In this document: in pieces, positions 8,529 to 62,033 of the stretch
How positions within the stretch are numbered: position 1 is the stretch's first letter
How the letters are laid out: each line of letters begins with the position of its first letter
DNA from: a virus
Length of the DNA stretch: 62,705 bases
IMG/VR virus record: IMGVR_UViG_3300045988_178329
Span: 1 to 62,705 of that record
Strand: one strand, 5' to 3'
Notes under the pieces: generated by a model
Seen by the model: only the letters and a program-made list of their open reading frames with translations
What the model was told of the DNA's origin: nothing
The model's database searches: none
Made by a program: the position numbers and the translations under genes

Positions 8529-8537
8529 TCAAATATT

Positions 8538-9100: not shown

Positions 9101-9162
9101 AATGTTAATCTAATGGCAAGTAATATAATGATGATTTAATAGAAAGGGTGGAAGTTTCGCAA

Positions 9163-16196: not shown

Positions 16197-16204
16197 GATT
16201 GGTT

Positions 16205-22842: not shown

Positions 22843-22845
22843 CCT

Positions 22846-22906
22846 AAAACCAACCTTAAATGGTATTTACCAATACAAAAAAGGTGTATACACTTTGTGC
22901 AACGAA
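22846..22906 (+). promoter_or_regulatory. Internal promoter region: A-tract motif AACCTAAAACCAACCTTAAAT plus 10-bp palindrome GTGTATACAC
   Basis: Same motif family as 1643 and 17967. The palindrome recurs at 42928 and, imperfectly, at 29571. Confidence 0.45.
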
Positions 22907-29375: not shown

Positions 29376-29564
29376 GAAAAAAAGTAAAAAATTAGAAAAA
29401 AATTTTTTCTTTTTTTCTCTCTATTTCCACTTTTGATTGACAATTTTTTTGTAAGGAAAGTGGAACGAAAATTATAGTTTTTGGAGGAACAAAGATGAAA
29501 GGAATCGGACAGAGAAAATCGCTGAACACGTGTAGAGTGTTGTGTACAGACAAGGGGAATTACC

Positions 29565-29790
29565 GAATAGTTGTATACACCAAAATCGGACTTTTCAAAA
29601 AAAGTGGTACTCCCGAAACGGAAGTTATATATAATTTACTATCTATACCAGATAGTAATATATATATAAAAAGTATTGACTTTTTCCACGGTGGAAGAAA
29701 TAAAAAACGTTTTAAAAAAAAGGGGATTAAAATAAAAAAAGAATATGGATTTTTCCACCGCCGGAAAAGTCAAGGGTATTTATTTACATA
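29565..29790. repeat. Copy 1 of a duplicated AT-rich regulatory or origin-like region (copy 2 at 42922..43165)
   Basis: Shared blocks GTATACACCAA, CGGACTTTT(C)AAAAAAAGTGGTACTCCCG, an AT-rich core, GGAAGAAATAAAAAACGTTTT, TAAAATAAAAAAAGAAT, TTTTTCCACCG, GAAAAGTCAAG. Confidence 0.6.
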
Positions 29791-29819
29791 GTAAATAATT
29801 TTGGATTGGAGAGTAACAC

Positions 29820-30164
29820 ATGGGAAAGGTGATGAAAGTCGGTATATGTAAATATACCGGAGGATATGGATTGTTCGAATTGAGGATCAGGACGAGGGAA
29901 GGGACGATTTGCTGGAAGGTCGACATTGACGAATTCATGAACGGTTGGTTCTCGCTTAGGGAGGACAATCGGAAAAGGGTTCACAGGGCGAGGTGGAACG
30001 GATATATCGACGAATGGGAGAGGAGGCATGGAAGGGAGATGCCAAGGGAGGTAGCCGAGGCGGTGTCAGGGTGGATGCTGGTGCCGAGTACCCTTGAAAG
30101 GGTTGGAAAAAGGCGCGGACATGGTGTAGAATGGTTGATGAGAAGGAAGGTGATGGAGAGATGA
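29820..30164 (+). CDS. hypothetical protein (114 aa)
   Basis: ORF with ribosome-binding site. Confidence 0.45.
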   Translation: MGKVMKVGICKYTGGYGLFELRIRTREGTICWKVDIDEFMNGWFSLREDNRKRVHRARWNGYIDEWERRHGREMPREVAEAVSGWMLVPSTLERVGKRRGHGVEWLMRRKVMER

Positions 30165-30598
30165 AGGAAAACCCATTGGTAGAGATGTTCGACAGGCCTG
30201 CCGAGTGGAAGCTGGACAGGAAGAGGTACCCATGGCTATCCGACAAGGAGGTTGGGTTCCTCGAATCCATGCCGTTCGACTATGGGAACATAATGGCTGC
30301 CGTCAGTTACTTCCTCACCAAGGAACAGGTGGCTGAGAGGCTACTGACTACGGAGGAGGAGTTGGACAAGTATTGTCAGACATTGTGGAATAGGGACTTT
30401 AATAGCGTGTATACAGTGCTAATGAAAAAAGCCAAAGAAACCGGTATTGACACCTTCAAGTGGTTTGCCAATAAGGGAAATGCCACTGCCCTCTCCATAA
30501 TGGCTCACTCCATCATGAAGCTTGATAGGGAGGACAATGACAAGTCGCTGAAGGTTACCATTGTCAATGACCTTCCAGACATGGGTAATGGGAAATGA
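30131..30598 (+). CDS. hypothetical protein (155 aa)
   Basis: ORF. Confidence 0.45.
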   Translation: MVDEKEGDGEMKENPLVEMFDRPAEWKLDRKRYPWLSDKEVGFLESMPFDYGNIMAAVSYFLTKEQVAERLLTTEEELDKYCQTLWNRDFNSVYTVLMKKAKETGIDTFKWFANKGNATALSIMAHSIMKLDREDNDKSLKVTIVNDLPDMGNGK

Positions 30599-31272
30599 TC
30601 CTCCAGGACTTGCGCAAGAAGGACGCGTTCCTCTCTTCCGTCGATGAAGAGCAAAGGGACGCCATGGAACTCCTCTATGGCGAGAGTGGGAAGATGATTA
30701 ACAAGCAATCGTTCTCCCAGGCCATAATGGGATCGGAGGCGTTTGCCAAGAGTTCACCACTGATAAGGCCAAAGGTATCCGTACTCAGAAAGCCACTGTC
30801 GCTTGATGAGGATTCGGACAGCAGGGTTGACCTATTTCAGACCGACGGACATTACTACGTAACCTATAACAACGAGTTCAGCTACGAATATCTCTGCAAC
30901 CCGGAAAAGGTGAAGGAGATGCCGTTTGTGGTATCTGGGGACATATTCACTACGAATTCAAGGGTTCCCAATAGGTATCGCGACTACTACCACCTGATGG
31001 CAATGGGGAAACTGATACCGATGCTTGGCACCGTGCTTGAGTTCTCAAACATCTCGAAGGACCTGTTCTTCATGGCTAGGAGAAATCCGATGGTAAGGTT
31101 TCCGTTCTGTTTCGACTTCGTTCGCTATGAGGAGGAAGTTGGTCAGACGCACTTCGTTACCAGAGACCTCTATGGAAAGCAGATAGACTTCGAGAAGGCA
31201 CGGAGCAGCAATCCGGCATACATGTATAGGATCAAGCATGGTCTTGACCCGGTAACCAAGGAGAAGATGTGA
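30595..31272 (+). CDS. hypothetical protein (225 aa)
   Basis: ORF. Confidence 0.5.
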   Translation: MILQDLRKKDAFLSSVDEEQRDAMELLYGESGKMINKQSFSQAIMGSEAFAKSSPLIRPKVSVLRKPLSLDEDSDSRVDLFQTDGHYYVTYNNEFSYEYLCNPEKVKEMPFVVSGDIFTTNSRVPNRYRDYYHLMAMGKLIPMLGTVLEFSNISKDLFFMARRNPMVRFPFCFDFVRYEEEVGQTHFVTRDLYGKQIDFEKARSSNPAYMYRIKHGLDPVTKEKM

Positions 31273-31273
31273 T

Positions 31274-32923
31274 ATGGAATTGACAAAGTACCTAGACACG
31301 ATTGCGTTGTCCTGCCTGGGTTTGCAGAAGGCACCCACCCCACTTGAGCTAGAGAAGGCGGTGTTCACGAACGATTTGGAGGGTGTCCTCCACTATAGGC
31401 TTGCAGAAGGCCGTGCATGGTATTCCGCAGATGACGACGAGATACTTGCCTTCTACAACTATTCGGAGAGGGTGGAGTACAATACCGAACCATATAGGTA
31501 CAAGAACAAGCGTTCGTTCTTCTGGGCACGTTCATCACTCGAGGACGAGATGAAGAGGACGCACAGTGGCTTTGCCCGGGATATTGTCGATACAGACGTT
31601 GCACTCCTTGGGCTTCCTAGGATTAAGGTTGGCGTAAAGAGGAAGCCAGATAGCGACCTTATCGACAGGAAGTACCCAACGCTTGACGGGAAGAAGCCAC
31701 AGGAAGCACTTGATGACATAATGGAATACAATGACCTTCCAAGAATGGTTCAGGAAGAGCAGGAACCACTTACCCTGGTAGACGGTTGGGGGGCGTTCAA
31801 GATTACATGGGGAGAGGAAGCTGACGTGCCTCTAGTCCACTACTATGGCGGAGAGAGGGTTAGGATACACTCCAGGGGAAGCTCCGTATTCGGTATGACA
31901 TTCCTTGACTGGTATTCAGATGCACAGGGGAAGAGATACCTCATAGCCGAGACTAGGCTAATGAAGGACGGAAGGGGAATGATACGCTATAACTGCTTTA
32001 GGGACATCGGAAACGGGACCTTGGCTCCGCTTAGCAGGGAAGAGGCTGCGTTCTTCACCAAGGCGCAGGACCTGGATGACCTGCCGTGCCTATTTGCCGT
32101 TCCTACCTCGTTCTATGCGGACACCCAGAATGGACTTCCGGGAAGAAGCATCTTCAATGGCAAGTACAGTGTCTTTGATGACATAGACCAGGCGTTCTCC
32201 CAATGTGCAAATGCCATTAGGCGTTCCACCCCGGTAGAGAAGTTCGACCTCGACTATTGCGAAAGGGACAAGGATGGCATTGCAAGGATGCCTAAGCTCT
32301 TCGAAAGGAGGTACATTGGAATCCGTGGAATGAAGAACGCCTATGGTGAGAAGTCTGGGGACGATCCGGTAACCGTATCCCAGCCAAGGCTAGACATAGA
32401 AATGTATGTCCGTGCAATAGAACTCAATATGAGGAAGGCAATTAACGGACATTTGTCCCCTACTACCATAGGGCTTGATACCGAGAGGAAGGACAATGCG
32501 GACGCCCAGAGGGAATCCGAGAAGATAACAATCTTCACCATGAAGCATCTTGCAGGTAGGGAAAAGAGGATCCTGGAAAGACTAGCGAACCAACTCCTCA
32601 TCGCCTATGAATACATAACTGCCAAGAACCACGTAATCACCTGCGATGACTATGGTGTCAGTGTCGAGTATGATGAGTTCGGCAACCAGAGCTTCGAATC
32701 CAAGATAACCACACTTGCGACAGTACTTGCAAATGATGGCATATCACCTTCAATGTATGTCTCCAAGGTATATGGAGATTCCATATCAGAGGCAGACAGG
32801 AAGGAGGAAATCAAGTGGCTGGAATCCAAGCACACGCTCGAAACCCCCACCGTGCAAGGCGATAGTAGGGGGAAGGAAGGAAACCTCGACGGACTGCTTG
32901 ATGAAATCGGGGACGGTGAATGA
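31274..32923 (+). CDS. putative portal protein
   Basis: 549 aa, no Walker motifs, immediately upstream of the Mu F/SPP1 gp7-like minor head gene, which is the classic gene order. Confidence 0.4.
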   Translation: MELTKYLDTIALSCLGLQKAPTPLELEKAVFTNDLEGVLHYRLAEGRAWYSADDDEILAFYNYSERVEYNTEPYRYKNKRSFFWARSSLEDEMKRTHSGFARDIVDTDVALLGLPRIKVGVKRKPDSDLIDRKYPTLDGKKPQEALDDIMEYNDLPRMVQEEQEPLTLVDGWGAFKITWGEEADVPLVHYYGGERVRIHSRGSSVFGMTFLDWYSDAQGKRYLIAETRLMKDGRGMIRYNCFRDIGNGTLAPLSREEAAFFTKAQDLDDLPCLFAVPTSFYADTQNGLPGRSIFNGKYSVFDDIDQAFSQCANAIRRSTPVEKFDLDYCERDKDGIARMPKLFERRYIGIRGMKNAYGEKSGDDPVTVSQPRLDIEMYVRAIELNMRKAINGHLSPTTIGLDTERKDNADAQRESEKITIFTMKHLAGREKRILERLANQLLIAYEYITAKNHVITCDDYGVSVEYDEFGNQSFESKITTLATVLANDGISPSMYVSKVYGDSISEADRKEEIKWLESKHTLETPTVQGDSRGKEGNLDGLLDEIGDGE

Positions 32924-33669
32924 ATAGGGACGTAGCTAGGGGAACCAAGGGGACGCTGCTCGCACTGGGCACGTCCCTTTTCTCGGTAGGGACGATCCAA
33001 CATGCAAGGAAGAGCGTCTATGCTTACCTAACCTCCACCGTGCAATGGGCGGATTCCATTGGGCTGCATGGGGTACTGGAAGCTGCCATATCGGTGGCTA
33101 GGACCTATGTAGGGAGGAAGTTGGAGTTCGAGCCAACCTCATTCATGCAGATGGCGTTCCCTAGAATCGTCAAGGCGTTCAACCGTGCAAATAGGCGTAG
33201 GTGGGTTAGGACTAGGAAACTGGACGTAGCCAATACGCTGCGACTTGGGCTTGGTGCCGATAGGGTATTCTTCCTTGTATCGAGCCACCAGAACCCACAA
33301 AAGGCACATGCCCCGTTCCAGGGAAGGATCCTCGTCAACAGCCATTGGAGGTCGCTTGGGGAGGGTTACCGTGCAAGGGTCGGATCGTATGTTAGGAACA
33401 GGAAGGTAATGTCTGTGCAAAGGGCAATGCGTGAACCGTATTACCTGTTCGTCAGACCAAACTGCATGCACTACCTGATTCCACTTGACACAGAAGAAGT
33501 GCTCAGTTCTTCCCCTACTGCCGTTGCAAGGAGGCACCGTGCAACCGAGAGAAGGGTTCGTAGGCCATATACGGACAAGCAACTGTATAGGCAGCGTAGG
33601 GCACTCTACCTCCTAACCCTTGGGTTACTAGAAAAGAAACTTGGGAGAAGTGGGATAAAGGCAAAATGA
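32920..33669 (+). CDS. phage minor head (head morphogenesis) protein, Mu F/SPP1 gp7 family
   Basis: C-terminal ...FQGRILVNSHW...YLFVRPNCMHYLIPL matches the F-like hPNCRC box. Five copies of ACCGTGCAA lie inside this gene. Confidence 0.55.
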   Translation: MNRDVARGTKGTLLALGTSLFSVGTIQHARKSVYAYLTSTVQWADSIGLHGVLEAAISVARTYVGRKLEFEPTSFMQMAFPRIVKAFNRANRRRWVRTRKLDVANTLRLGLGADRVFFLVSSHQNPQKAHAPFQGRILVNSHWRSLGEGYRARVGSYVRNRKVMSVQRAMREPYYLFVRPNCMHYLIPLDTEEVLSSSPTAVARRHRATERRVRRPYTDKQLYRQRRALYLLTLGLLEKKLGRSGIKAK

Positions 33670-42886: not shown

Positions 42887-42921
42887 GTGTCTCCTCCATA
42901 AGGAAATTATACACTTTCCTA

Positions 42922-43165
42922 TTGACTGTGTATACACCAACCTTCGACTTTTTGAAAAATGTGGTACTCTCGGGAGGATGGACATATCTATTTTAATATC
43001 TTTTATATATATCTATAAAAGATATGTAAAATATATATGTAAATGTCAACCTATTCTGTTATGGAAGAAATAAAAAACATTTTGAAAAAATAAAATGTAA
43101 AATAAAAAAGAATTAGGTTTTTTCCACCGTAGAAAAAGTCAATAGCAATTATATATGTAATATAT
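42922..43165. repeat. Copy 2 of the duplicated AT-rich regulatory or origin-like region (copy 1 at 29565..29790), bounded by inverted copies of AAAAAGTGGTACTCTCGG
   Basis: Blocks shared with copy 1, the palindrome GTGTATACAC at 42928-42937, and an inverted-repeat partner at 43176-43196. Confidence 0.6.
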
Positions 43166-43200
43166 AAAAACGCTTCCGAGAGTACCACTTTTTGAGATAA

Positions 43201-43226: not shown

Positions 43227-43415
43227 CTAACTCGGTTTTTGACCTATTTCTCCTGTGGTTAAATTTTTGCCTTTCCTTTCTATTTTTCTCGCACGGGTGC
43301 GTACGTGGCACACAAGAAAAGTTTCCAATTTTGTCTGACTTGCCTTAAAATATGATCGAAAGCCATTGGTCGCTAGAAAAAGGCCAAGATTAAACTCGTA
43401 TGGAGAGGGTAAGCC

Positions 43416-44120
43416 ATGGAAGAAGAAAAGAAGATTGAGGAAATCAAATCTGGGGAAACCGAAACCGAGAGGGGACCATTAGACAAGGCAGTGGAGGAAT
43501 CCGTTACCGAACTTGTCGATGGGAACAAGGAGGAGGAGGTTGCCGATACCCAGTCGGCTAGGGAGGGCGAATCTGGAGAGGAAGCCCCAACCGAAACGAA
43601 GGCAGTAGACGAAAGGGCAGAGAAGCCTATGTTCACTCAAAGCCAGGTAAACGAACTCGTGGGGAGGGCAAGGCAGGAAGGCCGTCAGAAGGGCTATGAA
43701 TCCGCCAGGACCGAACTAAGGGAACGCTATGGTGTGGATGGCGACGATGACCTTGACAGGATATTTGCCGACGGAGGTCGCTTCGACGAATTGAGTTCGC
43801 GTTACGAGCAATCGGGAAAGGAACTCGCGGAGGTTAGGGCAGAACTTGCCCTTGCCAGGAGCGGAATAGTCCCCGAACGCCAATCCGATGCACGGGCAAT
43901 ACTTGCAGGCAACGGAATGGACGTAAGCGAGGAAAACATTGCCTCGCTCCTACCGACACATCCAGAGTGGTTGGGAAAGAAGGAGGAGGTTGTCGTTGAG
44001 CCAAAGGTACAGGACAGAGAAATCCCACAGCCGAAGCCTATGGCTGTCGGAATCGAACCGAAGCCGGCAAACGATGACGAGGACATAATGTCCCAGGTAC
44101 TCCAGATGTACAGGCAATAG
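43416..44120 (+). CDS. putative capsid scaffolding protein (acidic, coiled-coil)
   Basis: 234 aa, very acidic, first gene of the late operon, upstream of the putative major capsid gene. Confidence 0.45.
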   Translation: MEEEKKIEEIKSGETETERGPLDKAVEESVTELVDGNKEEEVADTQSAREGESGEEAPTETKAVDERAEKPMFTQSQVNELVGRARQEGRQKGYESARTELRERYGVDGDDDLDRIFADGGRFDELSSRYEQSGKELAEVRAELALARSGIVPERQSDARAILAGNGMDVSEENIASLLPTHPEWLGKKEEVVVEPKVQDREIPQPKPMAVGIEPKPANDDEDIMSQVLQMYRQ

Positions 44121-44140
44121 ACAACCGAAGGGAAATTTAT

Positions 44141-44548
44141 ATGACAAACGAAGAATACGAAGCAATGGTTTCCAGGTTGCAGAAGGAACTTGGGCTATCC
44201 AAGGAGGACATCGCGATTGGCTTCTTCTCATCCTTCTATGATGGATTGATTGACAGGAAGCAATTGGATGCCGTCTTGGCAGGCATAGGTTTCAAGGTAT
44301 CGGACGATTATGCCAAGCTCTCCGACGATGAATTGAAGAAGAAAATCTTCAAGAAGGAAGAGGACGAGGCAAAGGAAGATGCCACACCAAAGGAAGTCGA
44401 GGAAGCAAAGACCGACCCGACTGGGGAAGTCCCCCCAACCGCAAGGAAGTCCGAGGAAAAGAAGAAGGAATCCGAAGATGAACCCGAAGAGGACGAAGAA
44501 AAGATTAAGGAAGAGGTCATGAAGATGTACTTCCCCGAAAGGAAGTAG
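44141..44548 (+). CDS. hypothetical acidic protein (135 aa)
   Basis: ORF; the C-terminal half is Glu/Lys-rich. Confidence 0.45.
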   Translation: MTNEEYEAMVSRLQKELGLSKEDIAIGFFSSFYDGLIDRKQLDAVLAGIGFKVSDDYAKLSDDELKKKIFKKEEDEAKEDATPKEVEEAKTDPTGEVPPTARKSEEKKKESEDEPEEDEEKIKEEVMKMYFPERK

Positions 44549-44572
44549 TCGGACTGACACGAAAGGAAGATT

Positions 44573-45841
44573 ATGCAAACAATAGCAAATAACATTGGAT
44601 TTGTTACCAAGTATTCCCCAAATGCCTGGGACGAAGTATACCAAATGAGCTCTAGGGCTTCCCTATTGAGCAACAAAGGCCTAGTCAACACCAAGGACGT
44701 TGACGGAGCCAGAATCGTAAGGGTCGCAAAGAAAACCTATGGCGGACTTGCACCATATGTCCGCAACAACATCCAGGACGGAGCCACCGAAGGGCTTGGC
44801 TACCATGGCTACAAACAAGCTGCCCAATCCCTCGTCTGGGAAGAGAGAACCCTTACCCAAGACGTAGGTGCTGCCTACCCAATCGAAATCATGGACAACA
44901 ACGAAAGCCTTGGCTTGGCAGTTGCCACTACCACCGCTGACGTCAGTAAGCAAGTCGTCATTCCAGATGTCGATGCCTATTGCTTCTCCCACATCTGTGA
45001 GGAAGTCAAGAGATTGAACCCAACCAACTACAAGAGTGGCGCATTCACTACCGGCAAGTACCTAGAGGAATTGAACAACGCCTTCTTCGCATTGGAAAGC
45101 CAAAACGTCGAATCCGAAAACCAAATCGTATTCGTCTCCACCGCCTACTTCAATGCCTTAAGAAGCACCCCTGAACTATACCGTAAGCTCGACTCCGAAG
45201 GTGATGTCGGCAAGAAGGTATCCTTCAAGATTGTCGGATACGAAGGACGTCCATTGGTTGTCTGCCCACCACAACGTTTCCGCGAAGGATTCAAGAGACG
45301 TGCCGATGGCGGATTCTACTTCACCGGTAGCGACATCGACTTCATCTGCCTCGAAAAGGATGCTGCAATCCATATCACCAAGTACCAAAAGACCAAGGTA
45401 TTGACAGGTGAGGTTGCCCTTGCCTATTCCGGCATGGACAGCATTGTCATCTTTGTCCGTATCTACCACGATGTCTTTGTCTTTGACAACAAGGCCAAGG
45501 GTATCTATGTCCACGTTGGTGGGTTCACCAACGAGGCCGGCAAGCCAAACTTCAACTTCGCAATCGACGGTAACGGCGTATTGACCAATACCCTAGAAAG
45601 CCCAGTTGGAACTTTGACCAGATACTATGCAACCATCAAGTCATTGACCACCGCCAATGTCAATAGCGCTTGGGTAACCGACAAGGCAAAGGATACCCCA
45701 ATCCTAGTCGGTGATACCTTCTCCGCAGGTACAAAGACCGTAGTCGGAGTACAAGGTGGGGAAATCATCGGTGTCAAGACACTCACTGTCTCCGGTACCG
45801 CCCCAAGTATCACATTCACCCTAGCCGACAAGGCTGCCTAA
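44573..45841 (+). CDS. putative major capsid protein
   Basis: 422 aa, placed after the scaffold-like genes; call rests on position only. Confidence 0.45.
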   Translation: MQTIANNIGFVTKYSPNAWDEVYQMSSRASLLSNKGLVNTKDVDGARIVRVAKKTYGGLAPYVRNNIQDGATEGLGYHGYKQAAQSLVWEERTLTQDVGAAYPIEIMDNNESLGLAVATTTADVSKQVVIPDVDAYCFSHICEEVKRLNPTNYKSGAFTTGKYLEELNNAFFALESQNVESENQIVFVSTAYFNALRSTPELYRKLDSEGDVGKKVSFKIVGYEGRPLVVCPPQRFREGFKRRADGGFYFTGSDIDFICLEKDAAIHITKYQKTKVLTGEVALAYSGMDSIVIFVRIYHDVFVFDNKAKGIYVHVGGFTNEAGKPNFNFAIDGNGVLTNTLESPVGTLTRYYATIKSLTTANVNSAWVTDKAKDTPILVGDTFSAGTKTVVGVQGGEIIGVKTLTVSGTAPSITFTLADKAA

Positions 45842-45952
45842 TAGCCTTTGCAGATAGAGGTAAAAATAGGGAGGTAGGCATTGCCTATTTCCCTTTTTCT
45901 TTTCCTTTTCGAAGTGTGGTTATATAATATCCATATATGGAGGATCATACCC

Positions 45953-46609
45953 ATGGCAACACACGATACCAAGAAGATGGACGTAATGCGCAACATAGCG
46001 GAATCGGACAGGAACGACAATTCCGAATATAGCACAAAGTCGCTCAGGAGGAACATGAGCACCGGAGGTGGACAACCAATCCCAAAGGGGGAGAAGTGGA
46101 CCACCGAGAGGAGAAGTCTCCAACCTAGGGATCCGGATACCGGCCACTTCACGTTCAATGCCGATGCCGGGTTCAGCAGGAAATGGAAGCCCGGGGCAAA
46201 GAGGAAGTTCAAGACCATACCGCTTTCCATAAGGAGGACCAACTTCGACTTTTCATCCATGGCGGAGGCAAGCGTAGTCAACATTGTTGGTCGTACATTC
46301 GTTTCCAATGAGGACATGAGTGCGGACGAATTCATTTCCTACTTCCATACATTGGCAGGTGGCGACTATACCACAGACATCCACGGAAAGAAAGAAGTCG
46401 GCAGCGTAAGGTCAGGCGACTATGGAAGCGGATACAAGGAAGGTGCGGAATTCAATAGGTACCTTGGCTCGATAGATGGGGAAATGCTCTTCAGTGGAGT
46501 AAACGATACATTTACCAAGAAGAGGGGAAGGAAGTCCCGCTTCGAGAAGGATTGCATAGAGAAGGCAGTATGGAACGTAAGCAAGGCTTCTTCCGCTGCT
46601 ATGGCATGA
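45953..46609 (+). CDS. hypothetical virion protein (218 aa)
   Basis: ATG after GGAGGA; the upstream part of the track ORF lacks a ribosome-binding site. Confidence 0.45.
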   Translation: MATHDTKKMDVMRNIAESDRNDNSEYSTKSLRRNMSTGGGQPIPKGEKWTTERRSLQPRDPDTGHFTFNADAGFSRKWKPGAKRKFKTIPLSIRRTNFDFSSMAEASVVNIVGRTFVSNEDMSADEFISYFHTLAGGDYTTDIHGKKEVGSVRSGDYGSGYKEGAEFNRYLGSIDGEMLFSGVNDTFTKKRGRKSRFEKDCIEKAVWNVSKASSAAMA

Positions 46610-46626
46610 TAACGGAGGATATTCCT

Positions 46627-46794
46627 ATGGACGTAGACAATACAATTGTTAGCAATGACATTAAGCCAACCGAGAAATTCGTTGGTGGTAGTGGCAAGAT
46701 AGACGGAATACTTGGAAAGAAGAGAAAGGAGAGGAAGTTCGACCGCTCCCTCTTTGGGCTTTTTTCCGAAAAGTCCGATGATGTGGAGGGATAG
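46627..46794 (+). CDS. hypothetical small protein (55 aa)
   Basis: ATG after a GGAGGA ribosome-binding site. Confidence 0.35.
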   Translation: MDVDNTIVSNDIKPTEKFVGGSGKIDGILGKKRKERKFDRSLFGLFSEKSDDVEG

Positions 46795-46801
46795 TGGCAA
46801 C

Positions 46802-47650
46802 ATGGCACAATTCATACCATACAGGAAGCTTTCAGAACTTAGGAAGGCAGCAGACGGTGGGGATTCCAAGGCAAAAAACATCGTCGATAGGTACATGGAT
46901 AGGAACGCCGACATGGAAACCATATCCAGGCTAATGGACGATTACTATGGTGTTTCTTCTTCTAAGAAGAAGGAAGAGGAGAAGGAAACCCCTACCCCAG
47001 TAAAGGAAGTTGAGAAAGAGACTGTTGATATAGTTCCTACCGAAAAAGAAGAGAAGCCATCTTCCTTATCGGCAGATGATTTCTCCGACCTGTCAAAGGA
47101 GTTGGATGGCCTAGTCGACCTTCCAAGCATAGAGCCGACTTCATTCAGGGAATATGTTTCCTCGAAGAAAAAAAGAGGAAGGGCAGCCAAGAAGGATGCC
47201 AACTACTTCAAGGCCTTCGATCCCGAAAGGAGGAAGGCATTCCTCGAGAAGAGCAAGAAGGACTTCTCCGATAGCCTAAATGGGAAGAGAAGGGACCTCG
47301 AACGCTCCTATGGCGACATAAGTTCCGCCCTCGATATCTATGGTCAGTATGTGTCCGATATGCCAGAAGATGATGTCGAACTCGACATATCATCTTCCTC
47401 CAAGGCCTATGGCGACCTCGTGGATAACGATGGAGCAATGTCATCGTTTGGGAGGGGATGGGACGAAAAGGACCTATCCGAGATGAAAAGCGAATTGTCC
47501 GAACTCGTTTCCAAGTACGGAAAGAAGAACGTTGTTGCAATGCTTAACTCTCTAAGGGAGGATGGCAATTCCTGGAGGGACTATGGCAACAACGCCATAG
47601 ACAGTGCCGTATCTAACTACGGCAAATCGCTTGACAAACTATTGAAGTAA
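46802..47650 (+). CDS. hypothetical protein (282 aa)
   Basis: ORF with GGAGGG ribosome-binding site. Confidence 0.5.
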   Translation: MAQFIPYRKLSELRKAADGGDSKAKNIVDRYMDRNADMETISRLMDDYYGVSSSKKKEEEKETPTPVKEVEKETVDIVPTEKEEKPSSLSADDFSDLSKELDGLVDLPSIEPTSFREYVSSKKKRGRAAKKDANYFKAFDPERRKAFLEKSKKDFSDSLNGKRRDLERSYGDISSALDIYGQYVSDMPEDDVELDISSSSKAYGDLVDNDGAMSSFGRGWDEKDLSEMKSELSELVSKYGKKNVVAMLNSLREDGNSWRDYGNNAIDSAVSNYGKSLDKLLK

Positions 47651-47729
47651 ATGGGGCTTCCACCGAAAAAGGTGGGAGCCTTTTTTCCATTTGGTTGAGT
47701 TTTCTCTCCGTGGATATTAAAATATCCCT

Positions 47730-48044
47730 ATGGAAGAAAACGGAAAGAAGATTGTCCTCACTGAAGAGAGGCTACCAATAGACTGCTCCAGGCAGGCTGA
47801 AAAGGGCTGTACGGAGGTATTGCTCTACGACAAGGTGAATAGGTGCTACTACAGGACCGATGTGGAAAGCATCATCTGCCTTGTGCTGAAGAAACTCGCC
47901 GAAAAGGAAAGGGAACTCGACGCGAAGTATTCGGAGCTTGGGAAAAGGCTTACCGACGAACAGTCAAGGTTCATATCTGACATGGTATCCACCAATGAGG
48001 CAATCATGGCTTTGGTCCAGAAGGACGGAGGGAACTCGAAATGA
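47730..48044 (+). CDS. hypothetical protein (104 aa)
   Basis: ORF. Confidence 0.45.
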   Translation: MEENGKKIVLTEERLPIDCSRQAEKGCTEVLLYDKVNRCYYRTDVESIICLVLKKLAEKERELDAKYSELGKRLTDEQSRFISDMVSTNEAIMALVQKDGGNSK

Positions 48045-49174
48045 AGAAGTTTGGCATATTTTTTGGATTGGCACCGCTAGTTGCGGTTCCTTGCATCTTT
48101 GGTAATGGCGGAAACGCAGCACTAGCGACATCCGCTGCCGGGGAAGGTGAAGGGGAAGGAGAGGTTGTTTCATCTGGAGAAGTTTCCGTTTCGGAAACCA
48201 CTTCGGAAACCTCTTCGGAAACCACTTCCGAATCATCTACCCCTGCCACTACCACTTATGAATATAGGGTAATGGAAGCCGTCATAGGCTATAGGGATAG
48301 CGAGGACGTTTCCTATGCAAAGGGAGATTCAAGGATAGGTAGTTACTTCCTTTCCGCCGATGGCTGGAACGATGGCGATACATATGACATCACGATGACC
48401 ATTACCGGCAACGTAACCACCAAACTAGCCGACAAGGTTGTATATATCTATGAATATAGGCCTACCTTGGTAAAGTGGTGTGGAAACGAAATATCGATGA
48501 ACGGAGACAAGACTTATACGTTGGCAAAGCCTACCGAAAAGGGAGACTATGCGCTAGAAATCAACTTTACAAAGACAATGATTACCAACCCAATGGATCT
48601 CACTAGCATAAACTGGTCGTCATTGCTTACCGTCCAGAACCTCATGACCATCGGTTCATGGGTTGTCATAATTGTCGGTATATTGATCCTCTATGGTCTC
48701 AACAGGAGATATAAGAAGAGGGGTTCCACCACATTGGAGGAAGTCAAGAAGTCCATTTCCAGCGAGATAGAGAATGTCTATGGCGTGGAAATGGCAAAGT
48801 CTATCAACTCGTTGCTTGATACTTCCGTAAAGGCTGCCTTTACGGCAATAGATGAAAAACTATCCAAGCTAGACAATAACAATGCGACCTTGGTTCGCTG
48901 CCTACTTGTCATGCAGGAGAATACCCCAGAGGCCAGACTTGCCGTTACCAAGTATTTGAGTGAACTCGATACGGCAGAGGATAGCAAGGCGGAAGAGGTA
49001 AAGAAACTAATCGAGGCCGAAATGGAAAAGTACAAGGCCGACCAGGAAGCCAAGGAAAAGGCCTTGGAGGAAGCAAGGAAGGTCAATGAGCAATGGAAGG
49101 ACAAGGCAACTTCTACCGATACCGAACCAAAGGAAGCAATCGATAGCAACGCAGGGGACGGAACTACCATATGA
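48041..49174 (+). CDS. type I membrane protein: signal peptide, Ser/Thr-rich linker, one transmembrane helix, coiled-coil tail
   Basis: N-terminal signal peptide; TSETSSETTSESS linker; transmembrane helix IGSWVVIIVGILILYGL; charged C-terminus. Confidence 0.55.
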   Translation: MKKFGIFFGLAPLVAVPCIFGNGGNAALATSAAGEGEGEGEVVSSGEVSVSETTSETSSETTSESSTPATTTYEYRVMEAVIGYRDSEDVSYAKGDSRIGSYFLSADGWNDGDTYDITMTITGNVTTKLADKVVYIYEYRPTLVKWCGNEISMNGDKTYTLAKPTEKGDYALEINFTKTMITNPMDLTSINWSSLLTVQNLMTIGSWVVIIVGILILYGLNRRYKKRGSTTLEEVKKSISSEIENVYGVEMAKSINSLLDTSVKAAFTAIDEKLSKLDNNNATLVRCLLVMQENTPEARLAVTKYLSELDTAEDSKAEEVKKLIEAEMEKYKADQEAKEKALEEARKVNEQWKDKATSTDTEPKEAIDSNAGDGTTI

Positions 49175-49374
49175 GTACAAAGCTCAAATGGTGCCTGTTG
49201 GTAGGGCTGTTCCTTGTCATTGGTGGGATAGCGCTTGTCGTAGGGTTCTATTATGCAGGGTTTGACATACTTGGCTGGTTCACCTCCAAGTATGCCTTCA
49301 TAGTCTATTTCTTCATTGGGGCTTATTTGTTCCTGGTGTCGGCACTGCTGGTGAACGATTACATAAGGAAGTAG
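49171..49374 (+). CDS. small two-helix membrane protein (67 aa)
   Basis: Two hydrophobic helices. Confidence 0.5.
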   Translation: MSTKLKWCLLVGLFLVIGGIALVVGFYYAGFDILGWFTSKYAFIVYFFIGAYLFLVSALLVNDYIRK

Positions 49375-49378
49375 AGAG

Positions 49379-50407
49379 ATGTTGAAGAAGGCAAACAAGA
49401 AGATAATACTTGGGGTTGGGGCACTATTGTCGTGCATAGCGATAGTCGGGCTTTGCTCCTTTTTCCCTTTTATATTCGATCCATCGAAGTGGCAGAATAG
49501 CGAATTTTTAAGCGATGAATTGATAGTCGCTGCGATAACCATATTCTCTGTTATATGCCTAATGTTCATAGCACAGGCATCCAACGCCCAGAACCCAAAT
49601 TCCAACATAGCAAGGGCAAGGGTTCGCTTCCTTGGAGGAACCACAAAGGACGGAGACGGGAAAACCATAAGGGTTGAGGGAAGTGTCGAAAGGATAACAA
49701 GGCACAACAAGATTTCCGCCTTTTCCCAATGGGTAAAGAAAGTCATGCAGCCAAGGGATATACAATCCGCCAAGGAAAGGATGCTCACTAAGGCTGGGAT
49801 AAACGATTTCTCGCTACTTGAACTCGATGACAGCGAACTATGGAACCTCACCAAGGATCCGCAGAAGTATGGAGACAAGTTCTATAAGATGATAACCAAG
49901 AAGGAATACAAGGAGATAGAGAGGGCAAAGAGGCTTCGTGTTGATGTGGTCGATCCTTCCTACTACCTCACCTGCTCGTCCATAGATAGCAACAAGACCA
50001 TTACGGAGAAGTCAGGTGGCGAGACAAGGAAGAAGGCAACACTCCTCTCCTATTCCATCGTCTCGAAGATAGTCATTGGGCTTATAATCGGAATGATATT
50101 TGCCTCGTTGATTCTAGATACCTCAACAGGTGTCGAACAGGCAAAGGCATGGATGAAGTTCGTTTCCAGGATGTTCTCCATGGCAACCTCTTCCCTCATG
50201 GGATACATGATTGGTTGCCAGGTAAACGACATCGACGCCGACTTCATAGAGATGAAGTGCCTTGCTCACGACCAGTTCTTCGAGGACAGCACATTCGTGC
50301 CAAAGACCGAGCAGGAACTTGCAAAAGAGGAGTTCGTGGAACGCGTAAAGAGGGAAGGGACACTATTGACCTATGAAAAGGGAAAGGAAGGAAAATCCTG
50401 CGATTAG
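49379..50407 (+). CDS. membrane protein (342 aa)
   Basis: N-terminal transmembrane helices and a later helix IVIGLIIGMIFASLIL. Confidence 0.5.
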   Translation: MLKKANKKIILGVGALLSCIAIVGLCSFFPFIFDPSKWQNSEFLSDELIVAAITIFSVICLMFIAQASNAQNPNSNIARARVRFLGGTTKDGDGKTIRVEGSVERITRHNKISAFSQWVKKVMQPRDIQSAKERMLTKAGINDFSLLELDDSELWNLTKDPQKYGDKFYKMITKKEYKEIERAKRLRVDVVDPSYYLTCSSIDSNKTITEKSGGETRKKATLLSYSIVSKIVIGLIIGMIFASLILDTSTGVEQAKAWMKFVSRMFSMATSSLMGYMIGCQVNDIDADFIEMKCLAHDQFFEDSTFVPKTEQELAKEEFVERVKREGTLLTYEKGKEGKSCD

Positions 50408-50828
50408 GAAATATGAGGAAGCCCAGCGCCTCGAAAGGGAAAGGATAGGCAACGAGCCTTCACCATGGAAGAGGTTCTGGAAAAGGGTTTGGCATTTGGT
50501 TTCATGGCCGTTCAAGTGGCTGTGGGCGCAATGCCACGACTGGCGCTTCCTTGCATTGTTCCTGATAGTGATGGAGGTTGTCTCATCTGAAGTGTGGATA
50601 TTCTACCTATTGGCGCTATTATCGTGGGGAACGGATTTCGGAAAGTGGGCGCTTGGCATTGGTTCCACGATGTGGGCGTTCTGGCTATTGCCGGGAACTC
50701 CGTTCATACCACTTTGCATAGCGATAACAATGGGGTTGCAGGCAATAATCGACAAGGTAAAATATAGGAAGGGAAAGGAAGGTAGCCATGGCAGAGGAAA
50801 TGGAAAAGACGGAAGAGAAAGCCAATGA
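50373..50828 (+). CDS. membrane protein (151 aa), Trp-rich
   Basis: About three transmembrane helices. Confidence 0.5.
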   Translation: MKRERKENPAIRKYEEAQRLERERIGNEPSPWKRFWKRVWHLVSWPFKWLWAQCHDWRFLALFLIVMEVVSSEVWIFYLLALLSWGTDFGKWALGIGSTMWAFWLLPGTPFIPLCIAITMGLQAIIDKVKYRKGKEGSHGRGNGKDGRESQ

Positions 50829-51324
50829 AGAAACCGACGGCTATAGGAAGATGTCGGTAGCGGAGTTCTGGATAAGGTTCTCGATATGGGTGCTCCTTGC
50901 CCTTGTAGCACCTCTTGTCTACATAGCGGTGGCATATGGGATGTTCACTACCAGCAAGGGTGGCGATACCTGCCTTACCGGCTGGGGAACGGTAGCCATA
51001 ATGTTTACGTGCATAATGCTCATGGTGATAGTAAGCCAGGCAAAGAAGGGAATGCGATACGGAAGCATGGCAAGGCAGTGCATAGACGGATATACGGTGT
51101 TGATACCTATATTCTGCCTTATAGTGCTCCTGGAGGCCATAAAGGGGAACATAGAGAGCTTCGAGAGATTCCTTATAGTGATGATTATCTGCGAAGCCAT
51201 TGCAGTGCCTGTAAACCCAATGAGGAAATGGGCGGAGCAAAACCACATAGAGAGGGCTGAGGGCTTCATCACAAGGACATTGAAGAAGGCTCTTGGCAAG
51301 GACAAGAAGGAAGAAAAGAAATAA
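50788..51324 (+). CDS. membrane protein (178 aa), about four transmembrane helices
   Basis: Hydrophobic helices; Lys-rich C-terminus. Confidence 0.5.
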   Translation: MAEEMEKTEEKANEETDGYRKMSVAEFWIRFSIWVLLALVAPLVYIAVAYGMFTTSKGGDTCLTGWGTVAIMFTCIMLMVIVSQAKKGMRYGSMARQCIDGYTVLIPIFCLIVLLEAIKGNIESFERFLIVMIICEAIAVPVNPMRKWAEQNHIERAEGFITRTLKKALGKDKKEEKK

Positions 51325-51353
51325 GCCATGGAAAAATTCATGGCTTTTTTTAA
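51323..51353 (+). terminator. rho-independent terminator
   Basis: AGCCATG-gaaaaattc-ATGGCT followed by TTTTTTT. Confidence 0.75.
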
Positions 51354-51360
51354 AAAGATA

Positions 51361-51388
51361 TTGAAAAAGCAAAAAAACTATCTATAAT
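51361..51388 (+). promoter_or_regulatory. sigma70 promoter TTGAAA-N16-TATAAT
   Basis: Near-consensus -35 and -10 boxes; drives a short unit that ends at the 51510-51540 terminator. Confidence 0.6.
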
Positions 51389-51394
51389 GATGGT

Positions 51395-51540
51395 GATGGG
51401 AAAGACGCATTTCCATTTGGTGTATGGCATTTGTGAGTTTGTTCCATATTCCATCCTTTGAAAATTTTGGTGTCACAGCTTTAACCCCCTTTATTGAGTA
51501 GCACCTATTGAAGCCACTTAGCGTGAGTGGCTTTTTTTGT
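51395..51540 (+). ncRNA. putative small RNA, or leaderless 24-aa peptide unit, between a promoter and a terminator
   Basis: Promoter at 51361-51388 and terminator AGCCACT-tagcgtg-AGTGGCT followed by TTTTTTT at 51510-51540. The only ORF is MMVMGKTHFHLVYGICEFVPYSIL and it has no ribosome-binding site. Confidence 0.35.
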
Positions 51541-51577
51541 TGTTTAAAAGAAAGTACATAAAATGTAGAATTATGTT

Positions 51578-51958
51578 ATGGAATATTCAGGTTACTCAAA
51601 TATGGTAGTGTCTAGGCGCACATATAGGGACAAGTGCGAATGGTGGCAGAGAACCACCGTCAATGGCCAGATAACGCTTAGCATACTAGCCCACACCGTT
51701 GCCCCAAACGGCACATTCAGGGCAAAGAACGTGTCCAATCACTATATGGGAAAGACAATGGAGGGCGATATAAGGCTATCCAATGGATATGTACTCATAG
51801 AGACGCCTGACGATGTATCGTTCCTGAGACCAGACGATTACATAAGGTACGAGGGAATCTTCTATCGTGTCGATACCATACAGAGAAGGGAACTTGCAAG
51901 GACAAGGATGAACATGAAGCATCCCATTTGCGTATTTGTCATACAACTCGTGAGGTAG
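51578..51958 (+). CDS. hypothetical virion protein (126 aa)
   Basis: ORF. Confidence 0.45.
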   Translation: MEYSGYSNMVVSRRTYRDKCEWWQRTTVNGQITLSILAHTVAPNGTFRAKNVSNHYMGKTMEGDIRLSNGYVLIETPDDVSFLRPDDYIRYEGIFYRVDTIQRRELARTRMNMKHPICVFVIQLVR

Positions 51959-51962
51959 TGCG

Positions 51963-52532
51963 ATGGAAAGCAGGACGAGGCGTGAGGCAACAATGTCCCT
52001 TGCAAGGGAGATATTGGACGGTAGGGTAAGGGAGATAGCGAGTGAAGCCCCAAAAAGGACAATGGATCTTGTCGAGATGAAGTGGCATAAATCGAAATTC
52101 CTTGGCGATACCGGAATAGACATAGGCTCATTGGGTAAGGAAGGGTATGACTTCAAGGGTAGGAGATACCTACGCTATGAGAGGACGAAAGAGGAACTTG
52201 GAAAGAGAAGGAGCAAGAAAAGGCAGGAAGCCTTTGCCCTTATAGAGAAATCCGAGATTGACGTTGTTACGATGGTCAAGAGGGAAGCCGATAGGGAAAG
52301 GAAGAAAACCAAGATAAGGCAGGGAAGCGAAAAAGAGGTGTTTGTCATACTTGCATACGAAAGGCTTCCCGGCGAATACAAGGGGAATTACAAAATTGAT
52401 TCAAGCGGAACCGAAAAGAGGGGAATGAGGGTTTCGAAGCTTGATAGGTTGCTTGTCAGTTCCATAAGGAATTGGGCTAGCAGGGAACAAATCAATGTAG
52501 ATATAGAAATCGAGAGTAGTGGGAAGGAGTAG
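51963..52532 (+). CDS. hypothetical protein (189 aa)
   Basis: ORF. Confidence 0.45.
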   Translation: MESRTRREATMSLAREILDGRVREIASEAPKRTMDLVEMKWHKSKFLGDTGIDIGSLGKEGYDFKGRRYLRYERTKEELGKRRSKKRQEAFALIEKSEIDVVTMVKREADRERKKTKIRQGSEKEVFVILAYERLPGEYKGNYKIDSSGTEKRGMRVSKLDRLLVSSIRNWASREQINVDIEIESSGKE

Positions 52533-52537
52533 CCACC

Positions 52538-53488
52538 ATGATGGAATACAGCAAGGTCATAACGACAATATCCAAGCAATTGGGTGCAATAGCAAAGGGG
52601 ATTACCGAGGATTACGACATAGTGATATGTCCGGAAAGGATTTTTGTCGATGATTATCTCCCATCGATAGAACAATACTACGAAAGGAATTCCGAATTGC
52701 CTTCCCTTGATGTGGAAACGCCAGAGGAAATACCTTATGCCAATACGATATTCGTTGTCATAAAGGTTGGATCGGGGCAAAGGAACATGGCGGTTTCGGA
52801 AACTACCGTTACCTTGCAGGTAATGACGGAGGAAAACGATTTCGAGGTTACAAAGAAGATACTTGACATGTTCCTTGCCGAATACAATTTCGAATATAGG
52901 GATGGAATTATACAGAGCTATTTCAACCCAGAGATGGTTTCATCTACCGATTCGGTATATTCCGGGTTCAGGGCAATGTACAATTGCCGTGGAACATTGA
53001 GGATACCAGAGGACAACCTTATGTTCGTCCAGGACATAATGGTGGGTATTCCTGACGAAAAAGGCGTTACCGAAATGCACAAGATACCATTCATTTCGCA
53101 GAGTTATGACAACCATGCAAGTACCGACCCACAACCTCTTTCGGGGTATAATGGGGTTACGCTCAACCTAAATAGGCAGACAACCCAGACCGTCAGTTTG
53201 AATACATACCTATTCTATTTTTCCGATGTCGGTAACGACAAGGAAAAGGCTTGGGTGAATAGGTTTGCGGAGTCCATATTGAGGTCGCAAAGGAACATGA
53301 ATAGGAAATTTAGGATTGCGATAAGGACGAATATCAATGGGGAGAGCGTAGAAGATGAGGGAGGCAAGGTTTGCCTTGCCAATGACTGGTTCACCCTTGT
53401 CGGCACTACCTATAACCAGGACTGGGGAGATATATCGACATGGGCTTTGACATTCAGCAGGTCGAAGGAAAGGGAAGAAGGTGAATAG
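52538..53488 (+). CDS. hypothetical virion or tail protein (316 aa)
   Basis: ORF with GGAAGGAG ribosome-binding site. Confidence 0.5.
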   Translation: MMEYSKVITTISKQLGAIAKGITEDYDIVICPERIFVDDYLPSIEQYYERNSELPSLDVETPEEIPYANTIFVVIKVGSGQRNMAVSETTVTLQVMTEENDFEVTKKILDMFLAEYNFEYRDGIIQSYFNPEMVSSTDSVYSGFRAMYNCRGTLRIPEDNLMFVQDIMVGIPDEKGVTEMHKIPFISQSYDNHASTDPQPLSGYNGVTLNLNRQTTQTVSLNTYLFYFSDVGNDKEKAWVNRFAESILRSQRNMNRKFRIAIRTNINGESVEDEGGKVCLANDWFTLVGTTYNQDWGDISTWALTFSRSKEREEGE

Positions 53489-53490
53489 GC

Positions 53491-53994
53491 ATGGCAAAGA
53501 CCGTTACCATAAGGATTCTCAACGAATCAATCCCAAGTTCACCTTCACCCGACGCAAAGTCAGATGAAAGGAAGAACAAGCCAGAGGGTTCTAGTTCATC
53601 ATCAAACGAACTGAAGATGGCAAAGGCTTTCTTCAAGCCCGTAACCTCAATGGTGTTTCAGGCAGCCGAGGCAGGCTTCAATAGGTATCTTGACATGTCG
53701 GAGGACTATAAGGCGCAGATTGGCGTCCAGAACGGAAAGGCTATCATAAACATAGGGAAGGACGTTTACAATTCCACCAAGAGCTTTGCGAAGATGGGAA
53801 TGGCACTTGGTGGACCGGTAGGCGGAATGATAGGTGCCTTTGTCGGTCTTGTAACTTCTACCGGAAGGATTCGCTTGCAGGCTGGCAAGACACTTGCCGA
53901 ACAAAACAGGAACTTGCAGGAACAGGCCTATTCGCTCTATTTCACGACCGCAAGGGCAGGCATGGTCAACTATTCAAGGGGAACGGAGAACTAA
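53491..53994 (+). CDS. hypothetical protein with Gly-zipper hydrophobic segment (167 aa)
   Basis: KMGMALGGPVGGMIGAFVGLV. Confidence 0.45.
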   Translation: MAKTVTIRILNESIPSSPSPDAKSDERKNKPEGSSSSSNELKMAKAFFKPVTSMVFQAAEAGFNRYLDMSEDYKAQIGVQNGKAIINIGKDVYNSTKSFAKMGMALGGPVGGMIGAFVGLVTSTGRIRLQAGKTLAEQNRNLQEQAYSLYFTTARAGMVNYSRGTEN

Positions 53995-53995
53995 T

Positions 53996-58258: not shown

Positions 58259-58314
58259 AAAATTGGAAAAGGGCTTCCATTTGGTTTAGAATACTAAGGT
58301 AGGAGACAAACAAG

Positions 58315-60537: not shown

Positions 60538-60547
60538 GAGGAAGGAA

Positions 60548-62017: not shown

Positions 62018-62033
62018 AGAAGGAGGACAGTAT

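Follow-up and report, generated by a model that had tools for sequence, protein, structure and literature searches.

The uncultivated virus genome IMGVR_UViG_3300045988_178329 of the IMG/VR database, analysed here over its full 62,705 nucleotides (the window), carries a palindrome-rich, non-coding module in exactly two copies, one before the portal block and one before the capsid/tail block. The window is a phage genome assembled as a circle of ~62.65 kb, its termini overlapping by 51 nt. Copy 1 lies in a 444-nt gap ahead of the plus-strand portal block, and copy 2 in a 529-nt divergent gap that separates a minus-strand module of small genes from the block of the major head protein. The portal belongs to phrog_533 and the major head protein to phrog_422. 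Replication genes and an HNH/terminase cluster are found at 7-18 kb, away from both modules; the former encode an NrS-1-like prim-pol fused to a D5/SF3 helicase, a second helicase, a Sak annealase and a nuclease.

Two paralogous copies of an AT-rich module

An earlier interpretation made from the letters of the window alone (the sequence-only reading) had described an AT-rich region of ~230 bp duplicated at these two places, and this duplication is real. When copy 1 was compared with the whole window by blastn, 29572-29798 matched 42929-43167 at 70.5% identity over 241 columns with 16 gaps (E=4e-23), which exceeds the 60% that the reading had named as its lower limit; aligned with MAFFT, the two copies have a column identity of 77-78%. 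Every ordered block listed for both copies was recovered (GTATACACCAA; GACTTTT..AAAAA.GTGGTACTCYCG; GGAAGAAATAAAAAACRTTTT; TAAAATAAAAAAGAAT; TTTTTCCACCG; AAAAGTCAA), and the block TTTTCCACCGNNGNAAAAGTCAA occurs three times in the window against zero expected. The positions of copy 2 in a divergent control region and of copy 1 between plus-strand blocks were read correctly, as was the general anatomy of an AT-rich core flanked by inverted, binding-site-like repeats.

Some details are revised here. The duplicated unit is longer than proposed and reaches the right inverted arm (~29572-29819 in copy 1, 42929-43193 in copy 2). An inverted repeat does bracket copy 2, with a perfect part of only 13 bp (GTGGTACTCTCGG, 42961-42973 versus 43176-43188) that is extended by an A-run/T-run with one additional T on the left. 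Copy 1 carries the same bracket with a degenerate right arm (GGAGAGTAACAC, 29808-29819), which overlaps the ribosome-binding site (RBS) of the gene at 29820-30164. The 10-bp palindrome GTGTATACAC was said to occur at a third location, and it does, at 22884-22893 rather than at 22896; the other exact site is 42928-42937, and copy 1 has the variant TTGTATACAC with one mismatch (Table 1). Allowing up to one mismatch, the window contains five sites, compared with 0.97 expected.

The open reading frame (ORF) 29495-29791 had been regarded as spurious, and we concur. Relative to L001, from the 97% relative introduced below, it shows eight nonsynonymous changes and one synonymous change among its nine changed codons, and the indels of copy 2 are not multiples of three. 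A protein-coding reading of this ORF is rejected, given the lack of purifying selection on the frame and its breakage in the paralogous copy.

Nested inverted repeats within each copy

Each copy spans ~220-240 bp at 20-28% G+C and contains four properly nested inverted repeats, here termed P1, H1, H2 and H3. P1 is the outer pair, with arms ~200 bp apart (GTGGTACTC...GAGTRCCAC in the window). H1 is a long AT-rich hairpin and H3 a short AT hairpin, while H2 is a wide inverted repeat (TTGACTTTTTCCACGGTGGAA / TTCCACCGCCGGAAAAGTCAA) that encloses an A-rich core. A single strand of the module, whichever of the two is taken, folds into a closed four-way junction; unconstrained folding of both window copies yields a closing stem with three branches.

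Copy 2 has a G+C fraction of 0.205 and copy 1 one of 0.26, compared with 0.438 for the genome, and the two copies are the first and third most AT-rich 200-bp windows of the genome. Against dinucleotide-preserving shuffles, the folding z-scores of the window copies are -7.2 and -8.7, and those of module elements including relatives range from -7 to -10. A scan of all intergenic gaps in the window with mononucleotide shuffles gave -7.2 and -8.4 for the modules and -3.9 or weaker for the remaining gaps. A direct-repeat search of the window and candidate gaps found no iteron-type array of at least three units in or near the modules. Their repeated units are the inverted arms only, plus a loosely repeated GACTTTT-N6-8-GTGGWA in the window lineage. 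The H2 arms contain a DnaA-box-like sequence, TTTTCCAC(G/C), which we treat as a coincidence because it is found in the window lineage only.

Conservation of the two-copy layout in relatives

IMG/VR contains a single close relative (97%); when that database was scanned for exact matches to the conserved blocks, one close relative and otherwise only chance matches came up. DNA searches against cultured phages, in both near and distant modes, detected no similarity. The closest cultured portal and capsid genes are only ~25% identical, and there is thus no experimental model. Distant relatives were collected via their portal and capsid proteins; the metagenome-assembled genome bins that contain relatives are mostly Clostridia, Lachnospiraceae and Bacilli.

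The same two-copy layout is present in relatives with portal identities down to ~35-50%, at the same positions and in the same orientation, with one copy 5' of the portal block and one 5' of the scaffold/capsid block. In phage B (portal 51%, capsid 62% identical), L032 carries the element that precedes the portal block (8295-8526) and L035 the one that precedes the head block (8380-8604), and phage E (L040, L041) and phage C (L033, L037) share the arrangement of the window. Fifteen genome pairs were tested, made up of 12 IMG/VR contigs with both portal and capsid loci plus phages B, E and C. In about 10 of the 15, the two upstream regions share a repeat of ~30-250 nt in the same orientation, 69-97% identical. 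Among the portal relatives with enough upstream sequence, 21 of 47 have an AT-rich 230-nt window with z <= -5 situated 1.4-2.6 kb 5' of the portal. What lies upstream differs by lineage: the window has accessory genes there, phage E the terminase, and phage B a set of plus-strand genes with a terminator of their own. The distance from module to first gene likewise varies, from 0 to 230 nt.

In some distant lineages (L108 1077-1306, L116 852-1081, L060 652-881, L119 1149-1378), the portal-block element is one giant near-perfect palindrome with arms of ~100 bp, z-scores down to -13 and a GC-richer centre, GCGCGCGAGGAG...CCTTCCTTGCGTACGG. A blastn search for a paralogue 5' of the capsid gene found none in L108/L126 and L060/L129, and a 24-nt match only in L116/L135. 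Several contigs of relatives end inside the module (L031 1-126; L050 1-115). These ends probably reflect assembly breakage at an AT-rich, hairpin-forming, two-copy sequence, and the module may thus be under-represented in metagenome assemblies.

Pairing is retained while sequence turns over

The sequence-only reading missed the key feature: what the whole phage family conserves in these nested repeats is complementarity rather than sequence. For P1, the window and phage B have GTGGTACTC/GAGTRCCAC, phage E has ATGGGGAA/TTCCCCAT, a third clade GGTGACG/CGTCACC and a fourth CCAGGTAAAGTCAAAA/TTTTGACTTTRCATG. The arms of H2 are replaced just as completely between lineages, with complementarity retained. 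Unconstrained folding of most elements recovers the same closing stem with three to four branches.

The third clade was aligned with MAFFT without reference to structure (alignment A5). Paired cells amount to 97.4%, and in 12 cells both sides have changed; slid controls reach 35-62% paired cells. The covariation score is 0.177 versus 0.069 for shuffles (0/500). A covariance model built from this clade only recovers L032, L035, L041, L001 and L038, on the plus strand and at independently drawn boundaries. At closer range, the window and its 97% relative differ by 16 substitutions across the two modules. Six are in the P1, H1 and H2 stems and all keep pairing; seven are at unpaired positions and three in a weak predicted mini-helix of the A-rich core, where two break a pair. 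The six stem changes include two double compensations (C-G to T-A and T-A to C-G) that separate the window from L001 within one 8-bp stem. These compensatory changes support the helices, but DNA hairpins would produce an equal signal, and covariation is insufficient by itself to establish an RNA.

The two copies of a genome also evolve together in part. Variants of the H2 stem are common to both copies of one genome (TTTGC in L048/L123, TTATGA in L066/L124, TTATGTA in L049/L131), while orthologous copies elsewhere carry other variants, and similarity between paralogues equals or exceeds that between orthologues. The arm sequences of P1 and H2 are common to both copies of a genome and those of H1 and H3 differ, which indicates that P1 and H2 carry a shared sequence requirement. 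Either a lineage-specific factor reads P1 and H2, or conversion between the copies is limited to them.

Promoters and short motifs around the modules

Sequences resembling sigma-70 promoters occur in several lineages, either where the module ends on its 3' side or 30-130 nt beyond. In the window, TTTCCA-18-TAAAAT lies 129 nt 3' of copy 2, and -10-like boxes are present at the same position in relatives. The L045 element is followed by TTGACA-17-TATACT, and other copy-2 elements by TATAAT boxes. Copy 1 of the window has only -10-like sequences, located inside H3, together with a weak TTGTAA-18-TATAGT on its 5' side that is not conserved in L001. The promoter scan found no convincing promoter 5' of copy 2 in the window. 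Coordinates of these features and of the stems are collected in Table 1.

Table 1. Features of the two modules and of the adjoining gene blocks in the window.
Feature	Position	Strand	Remarks
TTGTATACAC, one-mismatch palindrome	29571..29580	.	~20 nt left of copy-1 outer inverted repeat
Copy 1 P1 left arm, core GTGGTACTC	29604..29623	+	A-run precedes
Copy 1 H1, AT-rich; inner stem TACTATCT/AGATAGTA	29625..29669	+	Two fully compensated pair changes relative to L001
Copy 1 H2 (TTGACTTTTTCCACGGTGGAA / TTCCACCGCCGGAAAAGTCAA)	29676..29773	+	A-rich conserved core ~29697-29750 inside
Copy 1 H3, short AT hairpin	29780..29798	+	
Copy 1 P1 right arm, degenerate GGAGAGTAACAC	29799..29819	+	Overlaps Shine-Dalgarno GGAG and abuts ATG of 29820-30164
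Putative late block 1, 3' of copy 1	29820..33669	+	Genes of 114, 155 and 225 amino acids; portal 31274-32923; minor-capsid-like gene of 249 amino acids
Leftward sigma-70-like promoter TATACA-17-TATAAT	42906..42937	-	Serves minus-strand module (putative); -35 inside GTGTATACAC 42928-42937
Copy 2 P1 left arm AAAAATGTGGTACTCTCGG...	42956..42979	+	
Copy 2 H1; inner perfect 12-bp stem ATATCTTTTATA/TATAAAAGATAT	42977..43047	+	Relative L002 differs in loop only
Copy 2 H2 with A-rich core	43054..43134	+	Left arm degenerate
Copy 2 H2 right-arm block TTTTCCACCGTAGAAAAAGTCAA	43120-43142	+	Conserved with copy 1
Copy 2 H3, short AT hairpin	43149..43167	+	
Copy 2 P1 right arm CCGAGAGTACCACTTTTT	43172..43193	+	Followed by T-run
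Sigma-70-like promoter TTTCCA-18-TAAAAT	43322..43351	+	3' of copy 2, before scaffold/capsid block; first ATG 43416
Putative late block 2, 3' of copy 2	43416..62468	+	Genes of 234 and 135 amino acids; major head protein 44573-45841; tail genes

Several short motifs accompany these regions. The palindrome GTGTATACAC is specific to the window lineage and absent from phages B and E. Its copy at 22884 lies 25 nt upstream of the ATG at 22918, beside a AACCTAAAA motif, and its copy at 42928 overlaps the -35 of the leftward promoter; it is a plausible candidate operator for a dimeric regulator. Other intergenic regions bear a different repeat, (AACCTWAAA)x2, a tandem motif with 11-nt spacing, TTTAGGTTnnTTTAAGGTT (11 sites versus 0.5 expected). 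It is found on the minus strand at 1642-1660, 17967-17985 and 22841-22859, on the plus strand at 37712-37730, 41385-41424, 42059-42088 and 42442-42460, and also at 57201. These sites are always intergenic, antisense to local transcription and within early/accessory modules, and they read AACCTTAAAnnAACCTAAA just 5' of promoter-like sequences. The motif is probably an operator or activator site of another temporal promoter class.

A promoter-like TTTCCA-N11-ACTTGCCTTAAWAT is common to the upstream region of the head operon and one or two other sites (1674-1704 and 43321-43351, two matches versus 0.02 expected; also 37684-37710 on the minus strand). In its 5' untranslated region, the scaffold gene carries a small hairpin (43366-43387), 3' of a conserved -10 box, that is also present in L035 (~8790-8815), L038 (~8700-8725), L041 (~2810-2835) and L037 (~4720-4745); its stems show compensated changes (TTGGTC/GGCCAA, TTGGCC/GGCCAA, TCGGTC/GGCCGA, TCGTAC/GTACGA). 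Around the copy-2 region of phage B, no fewer than five intergenic sites carry the motif TTGCACGGC (L035 ~6850, 7190, 7320, 8195, 8660). A similar GCACGG/GTGCG motif lies 5' of the head promoter in the window (43291-43305), and other clades have GTGCGAATGTCCCC before TATAAT.

Functional interpretation

The strongest single fact is positional: two copies in the same orientation at the 5' edge of virion blocks. We therefore rank first a reading in which the modules are paralogous cis-acting copies that mark the 5' edge of two virion-morphogenesis blocks and serve as a late-gene cis-control module. It is tentative, at somewhat below an even chance; a pair of replication origins and a structured RNA come next, on a par with each other, and a selfish or accidental repeat comes last. 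This agrees with the half of the sequence-only reading that had proposed a master operator, as the related genomes examined keep the copies before the two virion-morphogenesis blocks in the same orientation. As for mechanism, the P1 and H2 arms would be recognised by a lineage-specific, phage-encoded factor. Binding of this factor, extrusion of the AT-rich palindromes in supercoiled or replication-single-stranded DNA, or both, might then gate the adjacent late promoters, so that both late blocks would be switched together.

Several observations weigh against this proposal. The blocks are termed late on the basis of gene content only, and the terminase genes (16199-17752) have no preceding module copy. 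Known late-promoter activator sites measure 20-40 bp and are not 220-bp palindrome nests. Copy 1 lies so close to the first gene in the window and in phages B and E that no room is left for a promoter between them, and part of the module must therefore be transcribed there. The shared stem variants could stem from gene conversion instead of a common factor, and AT-richness, dyad symmetry and the SF3-type primase-helicase suit an origin equally well. Searches of PHROG, Pfam and NCBIfam with the genes flanking both copies recognised no regulator. The first gene 3' of copy 1 (29820-30164) encodes a protein of 114 amino acids with a basic C-terminus that is conserved across the phage family and has few homologues. 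Its AlphaFold model is confident (predicted local distance difference test 88, predicted template modelling score 0.78), yet it has no family match and no significant fold match in the PDB.

An origin function had been the other half of the sequence-only reading. In this alternative, which we consider unlikely, the modules are a pair of replication origins, or an origin with a cis-acting partner like P4 ori/crr, recognised by the phage primase-helicase of D5/SF3 type; the inverted arms would be initiator sites and the AT palindromes unwinding elements. The origins on which SF3-helicase initiators act (SV40 LTag, papillomavirus E1, P4 alpha) are palindromic or multi-site, and two loci are required in P4. 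The window encodes such a primase-helicase, of 864 amino acids (9148-11742), in which an NrS-1-like prim-pol helix-bundle domain is fused to a D5_N/DUF5906/Pox_D5 helicase. The extreme AT-richness of the modules, their whole-module dyad symmetry (up to the giant near-perfect palindromes of some lineages) and their Watson-Crick-only stems on both strands are all in keeping with an origin. Arm sequences that are lineage-specific and common to both copies are likewise what initiator sites would show, and near the replication genes no better origin candidate was seen, nor any of iteron type.

Set against this, arrays of direct iterons were not found, and the modules, at 29.6 kb and 43.0 kb, lie 17 kb and 31 kb from the primase-helicase gene. 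In D5-type replicons such as SaPI and Streptococcus thermophilus phages, the origin is usually beside that gene. Both copies are fixed in orientation at the 5' edge of the late blocks even though the upstream content varies by lineage, which ties their position to the late genes. In addition, the two copies of a genome have different H1 and H3, which therefore cannot be sequence-specific initiator sites. A GC-skew analysis, which the sequence-only reading had suggested as a check, was uninformative on an origin, as the cumulative skew just mirrors gene orientation.

Equally unlikely, in our judgement, is that the active form is a transcribed plus-strand RNA with a four-way junction, either as the 5' leader of the late operons (acting in stability, translation or antitermination) or as a non-coding RNA (ncRNA) of ~230 nt from P1 to the T-run. 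Its helices are properly nested with compensated changes, and the outer stem spans ~200 nt and would thus form in a single strand only. As copy 1 abuts the RBS and ATG in the window and in phages B and E, its 3' part must be in the mRNA. A T-run follows the 3' arm of P1 in 9 of 15 elements; in one clade, both copies have a GTGAYTAG..TATTATAAC block with a -10-like TATTAT just 5' of P1; and a few U.G pairs are present in P1 and H2. The plus strand was the more stable in seven of the first eight elements, but the difference in folding energy between strands was not significant when 15 independent elements were compared (p=0.19).

Mismatches speak more directly to the nature of the strand. Helices were re-derived with G.U pairs forbidden, so that G.T and A.C count equally as mismatches. 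G.T and A.C numbered 7 and 5 and then, in 13 further lineages, 19 and 14; the total of 26 versus 19 in roughly two thousand pairs shows no excess of G.T (p=0.37). The stems thus consist almost entirely of Watson-Crick pairs and lack the tolerance of wobble pairing that RNA helices under selection typically show; the form that is selected, whether folded or recognised, is therefore more probably DNA than RNA. Perfect AU stems of up to ~38 bp and dyad symmetry of the whole element are also atypical of functional RNAs; in some lineages H1 and H3 are so alike that the whole module becomes a giant near-perfect palindrome. Promoter-like consensus sequences, such as the one after the L045 element and those that follow every copy 2, lie 3' of the module, and the lack of a convincing promoter 5' of copy 2 in the window is a further difficulty for a transcribed element. 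Rfam gave zero matches at gathering thresholds over the whole window and sub-threshold noise only at E up to 10 over both regions, and the literature searched, which includes large catalogues of candidate phage RNAs, had no description matching the module. On the basis of the Watson-Crick stems, the whole-module palindromes and the promoter-like sequences downstream, we favour a DNA-level element, in the form of single-stranded or extruded DNA or of symmetric protein sites. Within the late-gene cis-control reading, a DNA-level mechanism is accordingly the one we favour.

A broader formulation appears similarly doubtful. The module may be a folded nucleic-acid switch of a new class, a four-way junction of ~230 nt made of DNA unwound by replication or supercoiling or of an RNA copy, that couples expression of both virion blocks to the replication state of the genome via a lineage-specific factor; or the copies may be a twin ncRNA acting in capsid assembly or packaging.

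Finally, it is very improbable that the modules are a selfish or accidental repeat, whether a miniature inverted-repeat transposable element (MITE), att-like sites or functionless self-complementary (TA)n DNA: a two-copy, AT-rich sequence of ~220 bp with an inverted-repeat bracket would fit a mobile element, the broken contigs L031 and L050 would too, and (TA)n runs are inherently self-complementary, but the positions and orientation are the same in genomes with portals only 35-50% identical, no target-site duplication or direct repeat flanks the arms, similarity between the copies continues beyond the left arm, the essential portal gene lies between them with no recombinase adjacent, stems other than (TA)n (P1, H2 and copy-1 H1) are kept by compensated changes, and the z-scores stay at the values given above against dinucleotide-preserving shuffles. 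The MITE and att-site versions are rejected, as syntenic positions are constant across the family and there is no flanking duplication.

Comparison with known systems

No Rfam family, cultured-phage homologue or paper describing the module was found. Its closest parallels in late-gene control are the dyad at about -55 of late promoters read by P2 Ogr and P4 Delta, the C sites of Mu, and the central control region of phi29 bound by p4 and p6. Like these, the module is a shared, phage-specific cis element before each late unit, with dyad symmetry and an AT-rich, bendable context; as in phi29, a phage of Bacillota, one copy occupies a divergent early/late control region. Unlike the Ogr/Delta, C and p4/p6 sites, which measure 20-40 bp and keep a fixed distance to the promoter, it spans 220-240 bp with four nested repeats at a variable distance from the first gene, and no homologues of Ogr, C, p4 or p6 were detected. 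The lambda nutL/nutR and HK022 putL/putR elements offer another precedent, being two paralogous copies, one per operon, that are more alike within a phage than between phages. However, nut and put are RNA elements of 15-70 nt located downstream of promoters, whereas the module lacks wobble tolerance, is 3-10x larger and lies 5' of promoter-like sites in many lineages.

Similarities to origins are also apparent. Origins of SF3/D5 systems (P4 ori and crr, SaPI ori, SV40/papillomavirus, and oriS/oriL of herpes simplex virus) are AT-rich, have dyad symmetry and inverted arms, and can be multiple per genome. The module differs from them in having no iteron arrays, in not lying beside an initiator gene, in its fixed place before late blocks and in AT hairpins that differ between copies. 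The origin region of lactococcal phage c2 is AT-rich, repeat-rich and transcribed, and lies between divergent early and late genes. Copy 2 resembles it in its position at a divergent early/late junction, its AT-richness and its inverted repeats, but the c2 region is single-copy, there is no sequence similarity, and the second copy of the module lies inside a co-directional gene array. Compared with the RNAs of Rfam (phage pRNA, GOLLD/ROOL, 6S), the module has the dimensions of a mid-sized branched RNA and a closing stem between its 5' and 3' ends, but none of these families attains its gathering score. The module belongs most naturally with palindromic, AT-rich regions of a control or origin-like kind, among which it is set apart by its size, nesting, two-copy rule and family-wide conservation.

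Other features of the window

Besides the primase-helicase, gene content of interest in the window (26493-27281, 20177-21877 and 23222-23854) includes a Tad3-like anti-Thoeris protein, a C5 cytosine methylase and an N6/N4 methylase. Three tandem paralogous small genes occupy 2136-3180, with similar starts at 2151, 2536 and 3003 and a 171-nt repeat at 2516/2983 (79% identity). A further repeat pair is present at 3754/4105/24607, and a 12-nt tandem repeat, TTCGGAAACCAC x4, lies at 48190-48237 within the region of the gene at 48041-49174. A tRNA/tmRNA scan found none.

Implications

If the modules are a late-gene switch, they would provide a handle on temporal regulation in a large, uncultured family of 60-80 kb Bacillota phages of gut and rumen for which no regulator is known. 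They would also supply a sequence-independent signature, nested repeats before the portal and capsid blocks, with which late operons could be annotated. If they are instead an origin pair, this would be the first origin assignment for the phages of this family with NrS-1/D5-type primase-helicases and an example of a two-locus origin. As a folded switch or a twin ncRNA, they would represent an element that uncultured gut phages of Bacillota share family-wide and that is so far unannotated. Either way, the pair is a natural example of long-range complementarity maintained through compensated change, and of the concerted evolution of two non-coding paralogues.

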